A stretch of 64,000 bases of DNA, from positions 2,305-66,304 of the forward strand of contig JBJETQ010000022.1 of the NCBI GenBank assembly GCA_051883395.1, written 5' to 3'. This stretch comes from Christensenellales bacterium (GTDB taxonomy: Bacteria; Bacillota; Clostridia; Christensenellales; UBA3700). Made by a program: the position numbers and the translations under genes. Positions 25,616-26,962 of this stretch are shown piece after piece; the first letter of the stretch is position 1; each line of letters begins with the position of its first letter. The notes beneath the pieces are model-generated. The model had not been told where the DNA came from, ran no database searches, and worked only from the letters and a program-made list of their open reading frames with translations.

Positions 25616-26962
25616 ATGGCAGAGCTTAGAAAACTAGAATGTCAAATATGCGGCGGGCCGCTAATAAAGACGAATGATGATTGTTATGAATGTACTCATT
25701 GTCATTCTAAATTTGAAATTGACTTGACAAAAGTATCCGATGAGTTACTAATAAATCTTAATCGTGCTGCGTCAAATAGGAGAAAAGCAAAGTTTGACGA
25801 AGCAGCTGAAGATTATGAAGCTATTTTGGAAGACAATCCGGATAATTTCGATGCGGCATGGGGATTGATGCTTGCCAACAAACATATTACGCATATCAAG
25901 AACGGCGAAGACGTCCAACCTATTTTGTATGATGCAGGCGCTCAGTCAATATTTGACAATGCATATTATAAAAAGGCAATGTCTATTTGTCCTTTTCCTG
26001 ACGAATATGTACGTAAGGCAATGCAGCTTGATGCTCTAAGAGGCAAAGCTTATCAACAGTTAAAAAAGGATAATACCGATATACTTATATGTTGTATTGA
26101 TAAACAAGGAAGATATACCGACGAAATAAACTTGGCTCAAACGCTTGTCAAGGTGTTGGGCTTGAGAACGAAAAAGAATGTATTTTGGACGGGTACAAAC
26201 TTAGCTAATGTAAACAGAAGCGACTACGAACCTTATCTGTATGCAGCAATCAAAAAGGCAAAAGTACTTATTGTACTTACGTCTTCGCTAGAAAATTGTT
26301 GCGATCCCCAGTTGGAAAGCATATGGAAAAGATTCATAAGGTTCGCTAAAGAAGAATCGGATAAAAATGTCTTTCTTGCACTTGCCGGCTGTGATGTTGA
26401 CGATATGCCTAAGGAATTGAAGAAGGTAAAGACTTTTGACGTTCAGGACGGGAATTTCAACGCTTTGCTGGATACGGTGCAAAAGTTGTTTGAGACACCA
26501 AAAAAAGAAGAAAAAAAAGCGAAAGCTTCGGTTGAGGAAAAGACCACAAATTCAACAAAATCTCAACCTAAAGAAACTAAAAGTAGCAATACGACAACAA
26601 AACGTTCTATTCCAAGTGGAGCAGAAAGCTTTGATAACAGTAAGGTCAGTATGACTACTACGTTTGACAACGTAGGTAGAAAGCTGTCGGATGGGGACAT
26701 AAGCACAAATCCGCAGGCGTTGCGTAGCCTTGCGTCAAAAATAAGGTCATACGGGTTGGGACAACAAAATATTATTAGAGAATGCCATTCTGCTTTGAGC
26801 AGGTTGACGTATTCCTGGGACGATTCACACATGGTGCAGATTCTTGATGAGATTGCGAGAATACAATCGAGATACGATAACAAGATGTATGATATCAATG
26901 CATTTGCCGACTGGTTAGATCAGAAAGCAACGGTACTTGATAAGAAAAATAACATAAAATAA
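25616..26962 (+). CDS. operon gene 8: zinc-ribbon / TPR-like / TIR-like protein with a C-terminal WXG100-like domain
   Basis: CQICGG..(x12)..CTHCH zinc ribbon (aa 9-30). TPR-like segment FDEAAEDYEAILEDNPDNFDAAWGL. aa 154-292 follow the TIR strand/helix pattern (DILICC ... VFWTG ... AIKKAKVLIVLTSS ... ESIWKRF ... VFLALAG). K/E/S/T-rich linker. C-terminal hairpin with YSWDDSHMVQIL. Confidence 0.55.
   Translation: MAELRKLECQICGGPLIKTNDDCYECTHCHSKFEIDLTKVSDELLINLNRAASNRRKAKFDEAAEDYEAILEDNPDNFDAAWGLMLANKHITHIKNGEDVQPILYDAGAQSIFDNAYYKKAMSICPFPDEYVRKAMQLDALRGKAYQQLKKDNTDILICCIDKQGRYTDEINLAQTLVKVLGLRTKKNVFWTGTNLANVNRSDYEPYLYAAIKKAKVLIVLTSSLENCCDPQLESIWKRFIRFAKEESDKNVFLALAGCDVDDMPKELKKVKTFDVQDGNFNALLDTVQKLFETPKKEEKKAKASVEEKTTNSTKSQPKETKSSNTTTKRSIPSGAESFDNSKVSMTTTFDNVGRKLSDGDISTNPQALRSLASKIRSYGLGQQNIIRECHSALSRLTYSWDDSHMVQILDEIARIQSRYDNKMYDINAFADWLDQKATVLDKKNNIK

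Follow-up and report, generated by a model that had tools for sequence, protein, structure and literature searches.

What is a TIR domain doing in a protein that ends like a small type VII secretion protein? TIR domains usually are discussed as NAD+-cleaving immune enzymes. The gene that raises the question (hereafter, the target) lies on a contig from a Christensenellales bacterium (JBJETQ010000022.1), of which a stretch of 64,000 nucleotides, termed the window, was analyzed. It comes eighth in an operon so closely packed that neighboring genes are separated by 1-51 nt or overlap. Its product is a new architectural combination of two known kinds of domain: a TIR domain, apparently inactive, and a C-terminal helical hairpin resembling the WXG100 proteins of type VII secretion systems (T7SSs). 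The operon constitutes a conserved 14-gene cassette, headed by an ATPase of the T7SS type. The sections below consider how firmly each domain can be identified, what became of the TIR catalytic pocket, and how the hairpin relates to the neighboring genes. All functional statements about the target and its cassette are predictions.

Domain architecture of the target

The target is identical to a protein from a metagenome-assembled genome that NCBI annotates as 'tetratricopeptide repeat protein [Christensenellales bacterium]'. Its ATG start is backed by orthologs sharing the beginning MAELRKLECQ. Six orthologs of equal length and layout, at 31-55% identity, were found in a database of 5.8 billion sequences, and three further full-length relatives came from 1.84 billion cluster representatives, which were searched exhaustively with a profile. 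Neither a signal peptide nor a hydrophobic segment was found in the target, which therefore is most likely cytoplasmic.

The initial annotation, made from the DNA letters alone, had proposed a four-part layout: a zinc ribbon; TPR-like helices; a TIR-like domain; and a hairpin joined by a linker rich in K, E, S, and T. Every part is present and conserved (Table 1). In the zinc ribbon, residues C12, C26, and C29 are invariant across the seven orthologous sequences, and the structural model shows three short strands (15-20, 23-26, and 32-34). The TPR_14 model is matched in all seven orthologs (best Pfam TPR-family E 2e-7), and the ortholog profile matches consensus TPR proteins in the PDB at E 1e-7. 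The connector that follows falls within profile positions 1-300, the part covered by distant relatives. Residues K, E, S, and T make up 58% of the linker, whose sequence and length vary between orthologs. Of the ordered domains, the TIR domain is the least conserved (47-51% identity, versus 68-71% for the N-terminal part).

A TIR fold within a large family

Identification of the central domain draws on structure, on orthologs, and on more distant relatives. In the full-length model of the target, this domain is predicted with a local distance difference test score (pLDDT) of ~90, with strands at residues 156-159, 189-191, 217-222, 251-256, and 272-275, in keeping with the flavodoxin-like α/β fold of TIR domains, whose five parallel strands alternate with helices. 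When the full-length model was used as a Foldseek query, the best domain-sized matches were TIR domains, all with probability 1.00: SARM1, SPARTA TIR-APAZ, MAL, AbTir, RPP1, and SNC1, with template modeling (TM) scores up to 0.70 on the target side. Relatives of the DNPH1 type, which share the same superfold, come after the TIR domains. Thus, the domain read at the outset as TIR-like is matched by the fold search to TIR domains, not to some other fold.

At the level of sequence, the target protein matches no TIR model, even at E≤1, and a TIR profile built from the seven orthologs found nothing among PDB sequences, even at E 10. A broader profile of 25 sequences matched SARM1 weakly (E 0.04), and two of the seven orthologs match Pfam TIR_2 (best E 1.7e-6). 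The relatives are more numerous. Searching with the ortholog profile recovers 2907 cluster representatives at E≤1e-30, a number that rises to 5782 at E≤1e-3; the best 150 matches, with E down to 1e-56, all cover profile positions ~1-300. Eight of eight sampled out-paralogs exceed the Pfam TIR_2 cut-off (30-49 bits, versus 28). Since out-paralogs that match the ortholog profile at ~1e-50 pass this cut-off (44-49 bits), membership of the target in TIR_2 (PF13676) is transitive. The TIR domain of one relative (P0011) was modeled at pLDDT 94.6, and its 46 best PDB matches all are TIR domains; this model and its fold search describe the family, the target's own TIR domain being covered by the full-length model alone.

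Two local features join the target to this family. Residues E205 and P206 in the BB-loop are invariant in 10 members of the WXG-tailed subfamily, and among the relatives the Glu is present in 145/145 and the Pro in 129/145. In the alignment of the BB-loop that the initial annotation had recommended, this pair falls on the corresponding region of SARM1 (F603-E604). The W237/R239 pair also is kept in the target and is common among the relatives. Judged by structural match, by ortholog matches to TIR_2, and by family relatives, the central domain has a TIR fold.

The zinc ribbon-TPR-TIR module opens thousands of Bacillota protein clusters with very varied C-terminal parts, including BspA-type leucine-rich repeats (LRRs), MORN, SH3_3, DUF6273, the ribosomal L7/L12 C-terminal domain, and EF-Tu domain 2. 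In some relatives, the TIR module is fused straight to BspA LRRs. Hydrophobic segments occur downstream of the module in 110/145 relatives. Because these segments, and then variable and often surface-type domains, come after the module, it presumably works at the cytoplasmic face of the membrane in most of the family. No paper describing the zinc ribbon-TPR-TIR family (relatives P0011-P0155) was found in the literature.

A catalytic pocket lost

Residues of the catalytic pocket were counted in the 145 relatives aligned to the ortholog hidden Markov model; an alignment made independently with MAFFT agrees on these columns. In the relatives, helix αC starts with A-V-W232-V-K-N-E236-W237-S-R-F. 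The register was checked through relative P0079, which aligns with oyster TIR-STING (6wt6) at E 2e-7 and places spWvknE on SEWSKFE. This alignment indicates that W232 and E236 form the canonical TIR W...E pair. A different register, suggested by SARM1 (W638 on W237, with the catalytic site at position 241), was rejected: SARM1 has a long insertion here, and the TIR-STING alignment supports W232/E236. It was further ruled out by conservation, E236 being near-invariant in the family and position 241 hydrophobic throughout. Under either register (236 or 241), the target has no Glu.

The replacement involves the whole WXG-tailed subfamily. Position 236 is Glu in 144/145 relatives, whereas all 10 WXG-tailed proteins have I, V, T, or C (Ile in the target). 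Position 232, Trp in 143/145 relatives, is Q, Y, or E in the subfamily (Gln in the target). In the βA loop, position 160 is Tyr in 134/145 relatives but Cys in 8/10 WXG-tailed proteins, among them the target; position 161 is Lys in 144/145 relatives but variable in the subfamily (Ile in the target). Position 235, Asn in 144/145 relatives, is S, D, or E in the subfamily (Ser in the target). A confident catalytic Glu after the Trp had been doubted from the start; alignment to TIR domains bears out that doubt, and extends it to every WXG-tailed member. Because the Glu and other pocket residues are replaced in 10/10 of these proteins, the TIR domain of the target most likely is non-enzymatic.

The C-terminal hairpin and its paralog

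The C-terminal region had been read as a hairpin of WXG100 size with SWDD at its turn. The model shows a helix-turn-helix there, and not a disordered C-terminus. The turn residues W401, D402, and D403 are present and invariant across all orthologs. (The W-x-G motif proper is absent, Gly being replaced by Asp.) With the domain profile, the best PDB sequence match is EsxA (3zbh; E 0.006), which aligns end-to-end and places the invariant Trp over that of the WXG motif. The NCBIfam model ESAT6_2 is matched at E 7e-4 (19.8 bits, against a cut-off of 100), and Pfam WXG100 (PF06013) at E 0.04 in one of the seven orthologs. Structurally, Foldseek matches the hairpin of the target model to EsxB (4j11_B; TM score 0.73 on the target side, probability 1.00). 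Coiled-coil proteins also are among the hairpin's PDB matches. These comparisons suggest that the hairpin weakly resembles EsxA and EsxB.

A further similarity is found within the operon. The first of five genes for small helical proteins (s1-s5) directly follows the ATPase gene, and comparison of its product with the hairpin by hhalign gave a probability of 92% over 76 columns. The score of 39.7 is ~15 standard deviations above that of column-shuffled controls (10.7±1.9; maximum 16.2); the reversed control scored 15.9. No comparable similarity was found by hhalign between the hairpin and s2-s4. By sequence comparison, therefore, the hairpin is a paralog (duplicate) of s1. This paralogy lends indirect support to the idea, raised in the initial annotation, that the product of gene 1 may bind the hairpin. 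A combined profile of the hairpin and s1 matches at least 11 distinct WXG100-family chains among its 45 matches, with no improvement in the WXG100 E-values; in the large protein database, it finds s1 orthologs only. Indeed, the s1/hairpin family is essentially confined to the cassette.

A conserved 14-gene cassette

Within the cassette, genes occur in the order: an ATPase of ~1180 aa; five small helical proteins; one or two BspA-LRR proteins; the target; an SPFH protein; proteins of ~117, 201, and 197 aa; an AAA ATPase; and, last, a BrxL-like ATPase. Five lineages share exactly this order, with identities between targets as low as 31%, and wherever a locus extends to the start of the operon, the ~1180-aa ATPase is encoded there. 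The target strictly co-occurs with the cassette, in each of which it is one conserved, single-copy ortholog. Flanking genes differ in every genome: ABC transporter genes in the window, ribosomal protein S9 or CTP synthase elsewhere.

All identified hosts of the cassette are Christensenellales. Among 185,579 reference species genomes scanned by pattern, two carry it, both from the Christensenellaceae, a family of gut bacteria. Its GC content is 0.33-0.41, compared with 0.42-0.49 for the flanks (window 18000-36000). The lower GC and the different flanking genes in each genome suggest horizontal transfer of the cassette. A tblastn search of phage and plasmid collections gave no match, no PADLOC model matches the target, and literature searches found no description of the cassette or of a TIR-WXG fusion. 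The cassette is rare and apparently undescribed.

Its genes evolve at different rates. When the window is compared with the two closer loci, the ATPases show 66-88% identity, as do the SPFH and Snf7-like proteins, and s1, s3-s5, and the LRR protein show 24-43%; the target, at 53-55%, has an intermediate rate.

Table 1. Features of the target and of the cassette, in order of position in the window; residue numbers refer to the target.
Feature	Residues	Position in window	Strand	Description
EssC/EccC-like FtsK-family ATPase		18573..22100	+	1175 aa; no transmembrane helix; one Walker A/B pair
s1, small helical protein		22091..22363	+	90 aa; SWDD at turn; overlaps the ATPase stop codon
s2, small helical protein		22372..22638	+	88 aa; Pfam WXG100 E 2.9e-4 and TIGR03930 E 4e-4, both below cut-off
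s3, s4, s5, small helical proteins		22635..23684	+	86, 170-180, and 92-105 aa; fast evolving
Membrane BspA-type LRR protein		23720..25564	+	N-terminal region of ~180 aa, three hydrophobic segments, C-terminal LRR
Target		25616..26962	+	448 aa, ATG start; zinc ribbon, TPR, TIR (catalytic Glu lost), disordered linker, WXG100-like hairpin
Zinc ribbon	7-34	25634..25717	+	C9-x2-C12 ... C26-x2-C29
TPR-like helices	42-88	25739..25879	+	Model helices 42-56, 60-73, and 78-88
β-hairpin and helical connector	91-151	25886..26068	+	pLDDT ~90; belongs to the conserved N-terminal module
TIR-fold domain	153-296	26072..26503	+	βA DILICC; BB-loop E205-P206; αC without W...E
Ile236 codon	236	26321..26323	+	Site of the family's catalytic Glu
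Disordered K/S/T/E-rich linker	297-363	26504..26704	+	67 residues; pLDDT <50
WXG100-like helical hairpin	364-448	26705..26959	+	Helix 366-400, turn W401-D402-D403, helices 404-423 and 427-446
SPFH/Band-7 protein with C-terminal zinc ribbon		26985..27917	+	YdjI-like architecture; Band_7_1 E 2e-25, Zn_Ribbon_1 E 2e-8
Three small soluble proteins		27948..29516	+	117, 201-204, and 197 aa; the last with a weak Snf7 match
Single-domain classical AAA ATPase		29526..31079	+	CdvC/Vps4- or Cdc48-D2-like
BrxL-like ATPase without protease domain		31081..32583	+	500 aa; conserved last gene of the cassette

Genes upstream of the target

The first cassette gene encodes an ATPase that is closest to those of T7SSs. 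Its product matches Pfam FtsK_SpoIIIE at E 3.5e-28, and the NCBIfam models for EssC and EccC below their cut-offs. Among PDB sequences, it matches EccC (4nh0; E 1.5e-26), EccC5 (6e-21), and YukB, the Bacillus subtilis EssC homolog (6.5e-15), versus 5e-6 for FtsK. A simple hydropathy scan found no hydrophobic segment in the ATPase, and neither an FHA domain nor any other Pfam domain was found in residues 1-576. Pfam and NCBIfam models for EsaA, EssA, EssB, and EsaB/YukD match no cassette protein.

Homologs of the ATPase are almost confined to the cassette. Two distant relatives (P0161 and P0162) were considered as an extension of the cassette and rejected, because they lie in unrelated gene contexts. 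Elsewhere (L009 9040-13849; L010 653-5462), a distant ATPase homolog adjoins a bona fide Pfam WXG100 gene. The host of this T7SS-like gene pair apparently is a diderm bacterium, as the contig carries genes of the LptC/LptD type.

The small proteins s3-s5 keep their position in all loci, and s5 is weakly similar to s1. The LRR protein (Pfam LRR_5, E 1.8e-24) is the sole membrane protein of the core cassette, according to the hydropathy scan. Among the large genes of the cassette, it also evolves fastest (25-37% identity), and it is duplicated in one lineage and enlarged to 1810 aa in another (L001 5717-9965; L003 4567-9999).

Genes downstream of the target

No immunity gene is adjacent to the target; the next gene encodes the conserved SPFH protein. 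Of the three small soluble proteins that come after it, the 197-aa protein matches Snf7 at E 2.2e-4 (21.4 bits, short of the cut-off of 27.3), and weak Snf7 matches recur in its orthologs. Profiles of the 201- and 197-aa proteins found nothing among PDB sequences, and local hhalign detected no similarity between the two. The AAA ATPase matches Pfam AAA at E 2e-40 and Vps4_C at 21.7 bits, at or below threshold; the NCBIfam models CDC48 (233 bits) and CdvC (214 bits) are matched below their cut-offs. No MIT domain was detected at its N-terminus. It also resembles the anti-phage ATPases IetA (PADLOC) and IteA (NCBIfam).

The SPFH protein, two small proteins, the Snf7-like 197-aa protein, and the AAA ATPase (window 26985-31079) together form a candidate bacterial module resembling the ESCRT complexes of endosomal sorting. 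As neither an MIT domain nor a match among PDB sequences was found, the ESCRT-III/Vps4 reading of this segment is only a lead.

The last conserved gene encodes the BrxL-like ATPase, which matches TIGR02688 with 424 bits (above the 329 cut-off) and the PADLOC BrxL model at E 7e-194; no bacteriophage exclusion (BREX) genes were found around it. In two lineages, it is followed by a gene for a signal-anchored protein with Listeria-Bacteroides repeats (Flg_new; window 32580-34820; L007 16848-19874). In the window, this gene overlaps the BrxL-like stop codon by 4 nt; the gene is absent from other lineages, and may be an optional extra component of the cassette.

A model for the target, and its alternatives

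These features suggest a model in which a non-catalytic TIR scaffold is docked to a T7SS-like ATPase. In the WXG-tailed subfamily, the membrane anchor seen in the module's relatives is replaced by a flexible linker and by a hairpin duplicated from s1. The TIR pocket has decayed (Glu to Ile or Val, Trp to Gln, Tyr, or Glu, and Tyr to Cys), and the domain would act instead as a scaffold for interaction or oligomerization. The hairpin would pair with one or more of s1-s5, and its free C-terminal tail would be presented to the soluble EssC/EccC-like ATPase, as the tails of type VII substrates are. The TIR scaffold would thereby be tethered (or, less likely, delivered) to a machine that would include the membrane LRR protein along with the SPFH, Snf7-like, and AAA ATPase membrane module. 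The analysis shows the architecture, the TIR fold, the lost catalytic residues, the s1 paralogy, and the constant association with the cassette; from these we infer that the hairpin pairs, that the ATPase recognizes it, and that the TIR domain is a scaffold, and we give the tethered scaffold about an even chance of being correct.

Several points weigh against this model. The interaction of the hairpin with a partner is inferred. Similarity of the hairpin to WXG100 proteins lies under every curated threshold, its motif is W-D-D and not W-x-G, and the hairpin is modeled at a pLDDT of only 55-75. The ATPase lacks a membrane anchor, and nothing recognizable as a channel component is encoded in the cassette; transmembrane calls come from the simple hydropathy scan. 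Loss of the Glu makes NADase activity unlikely, yet leaves room for some other activity or for ligand binding. Finally, the WXG-tailed subfamily comprises only ~10 known sequences, all of them metagenomic.

What else might the target be? The initial annotation had framed it as an inverted LXG toxin. In this vein, it might be an exported type VII effector of reversed domain order, with the WXG-like domain and its small partners providing the export signal and the TIR domain consuming NAD+ either extracellularly or inside a target cell. Such an effector could account for a C-terminal hairpin with a free tail and for the small helical proteins and EssC/EccC-like ATPase encoded nearby; the relatives of the TIR module do retain the catalytic pair; and T7SSb substrates of reversed order exist, namely TslA (PMC10730906) and TslM (PMC13560087). 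The notion of an inverted toxin fares poorly, however, against the rest of the locus: there is no toxin-like active site, the pocket being replaced in every member; the neighboring gene encodes a conserved SPFH protein and nothing resembling immunity; each cassette carries one conserved ortholog, not a polymorphic toxin; and the ATPase lacks transmembrane helices and an FHA domain, with EsaA, EssA, EssB, and EsaB not detected. A fixed single-copy gene of intermediate rate, with neither an immunity gene nor an intact catalytic site, disfavors an exported toxin, which we regard as improbable. Since the target is a fixed part of a cassette with a soluble ATPase, a tethered scaffold is more likely than a secreted, NAD-destroying toxin. 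What does stand is the association of the hairpin with a T7SS-type ATPase, encoded at the head of its operon.

Two other alternatives concern one end of the protein each. The TIR domain still might be a signaling enzyme or nucleotide sensor that works through non-canonical residues, within an anti-phage island of the Thoeris or SPARTA kind whose effectors would be the ATPases and the membrane module. The cassette does look like an island, a low-GC insert between different genes in different genomes; one of its proteins passes the BrxL model, its AAA ATPase resembles IetA and IteA, and the TIR domain keeps the invariant E205-P206 along with W237/R239. But E205-P206 aligns with the BB loop rather than the catalytic site, the cassette encodes nothing recognizable as a nuclease, a pore, or an NAD-dependent effector, and neither the PADLOC models (for the target) nor the phage and plasmid collections gave a match, making this defensive role unlikely. 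Alternatively, the C-terminal region might be a generic coiled-coil oligomerization domain, unrelated to WXG100 proteins or type VII secretion, whose likeness to them is compositional. All WXG100 model matches are indeed sub-threshold, the model confidence for the hairpin is moderate, and coiled-coil proteins are among the PDB matches. A compositional likeness is harder to reconcile with the end-to-end alignment to EsxA, in which the invariant Trp falls on that of the WXG motif; with the WXG100-family chains (at least 11 distinct ones) found by the combined profile; and with a homology specific to s1, not s2-s4, given that s1 directly follows the EccC/EssC-like ATPase gene and overlaps its stop codon. 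A generic coiled-coil is, in our judgment, rather unlikely.

A more ambitious idea concerns the cassette as a whole, which could be an undescribed T7SS-related machine. Its soluble ATPase would recognize WXG-type hairpins, the one tethering the inactive TIR scaffold included, and, together with the SPFH, ESCRT-III-like, and CdvC-like AAA proteins and the LRR protein at the surface, would serve in remodeling, repair, or budding of the cell membrane: in effect, an ESCRT-like system coupled to T7SS-type cargo recognition, serving export or defense. This machine is a speculative proposal, with a low probability of being right as stated.

Implications and comparison with known systems

The target provides a TIR domain that has lost its pocket within a family that keeps it, and thus a natural case for a non-enzymatic TIR function, as scaffold or adaptor, in bacteria. 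Its fusion suggests that the WXG100-type hairpin may serve at the C-terminus as a portable module for docking, alongside an EssC/EccC-like ATPase not embedded in the membrane; such a use would widen the roles conceivable for type-VII-like ATPases. Interest in the protein alone is moderate, and would be greater if the cassette couples recognition of the T7SS type to an ESCRT-like membrane module.

Compared with the Bacillota zinc ribbon-TPR-TIR family, the target shares the order of ribbon, TPR, connector, and TIR domain, the E-P of the BB-loop, and W237/R239, and its residues 1-300 align throughout. The relatives, however, keep the W...E pair and mostly are membrane-anchored, whereas the target lacks the pair and ends in a linker and a WXG-like hairpin. 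TIR NADases (SARM1, AbTir, SPARTA TIR-APAZ, and plant TNL proteins) have the same fold and provide the best structural matches to the target; they differ from it in the αC Glu (Ile in the target), the Trp that precedes it (Gln), and the βA-loop Tyr (Cys).

With the WXG100 proteins (EsxA/EsxB, PF06013), the hairpin shares a length of ~90 residues, a Trp at the turn, and an origin next to a gene for an FtsK/SpoIIIE ATPase of the EccC/EssC type. Unlike them, it is carried as a fusion at the C-terminus of a 360-residue protein, has W-D-D at its turn, and scores below the family thresholds. LXG polymorphic toxins, with the LXG domain at the N-terminus, a variable toxin at the C-terminus, and an immunity gene alongside, are arranged differently: the target has a zinc ribbon and TPR helices at the N-terminus and the helical domain at the C-terminus, with no variable toxin or immunity gene. 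The C-terminal position of the WXG-like domain, to which the initial annotation drew attention, is thus correct, but it is not unprecedented. TslA (PMC10730906) and TslM (PMC13560087) of Staphylococcus aureus are T7SSb substrates with C-terminal LXG-like targeting domains, so the reversed layout is rare but not new. In these proteins, as in the target, a cargo domain comes first and a helical domain of the targeting type last, with small helical proteins encoded nearby. TslA and TslM, though, are active lipase toxins that have immunity proteins and leave the cell through a canonical, membrane-embedded T7SSb; the target has an apparently inactive TIR domain, no immunity gene, and a soluble ATPase.

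The cassette resembles T7SSa, T7SSb, and the T7SSc-j variants in pairing an EccC/EssC-like P-loop ATPase with WXG100-like small proteins that follow it. It differs in its ATPase, which lacks transmembrane helices and combines a single intact P-loop with an unrecognized N-terminal region of 576 residues; in the survey of variants c-j, every described ATPase is membrane-bound (PMC11217815), and a word search of that paper returned no Snf7, SPFH, or TIR component. The canonical T7SSb, moreover, has a membrane-embedded EssC with FHA domains, absent here, and components (EsaA, EssA, EssB, and EsaB) that were not detected.

Finally, the downstream genes invite comparison with two further systems: the PspA/SPFH (YdjI) module of B. 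subtilis ydjFGHI, and archaeal Snf7 with CdvC (Vps4). In the cassette, neither the Snf7 nor the Vps4_C match rises above threshold, and gene order is the sole link of these genes to the target. What the cassette shares with these systems is a set of genes for an SPFH protein with a C-terminal zinc ribbon, for a protein that weakly matches Snf7, and for an AAA ATPase like CdvC. A link between SPFH proteins and PspA has been described (PMC11237479, PMC10936438), and a survey of phage shock protein systems reports both the SPFH-zinc-ribbon/PspA link in Bacillus and sporadic transfers of Vps4-like ATPases to bacteria (PMC11237479). According to a 2025 review, Vps4-like ATPases appear to be absent from bacteria (PMC7619361). 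If its weak Snf7 and CdvC similarities hold, the cassette provides a concrete test case.

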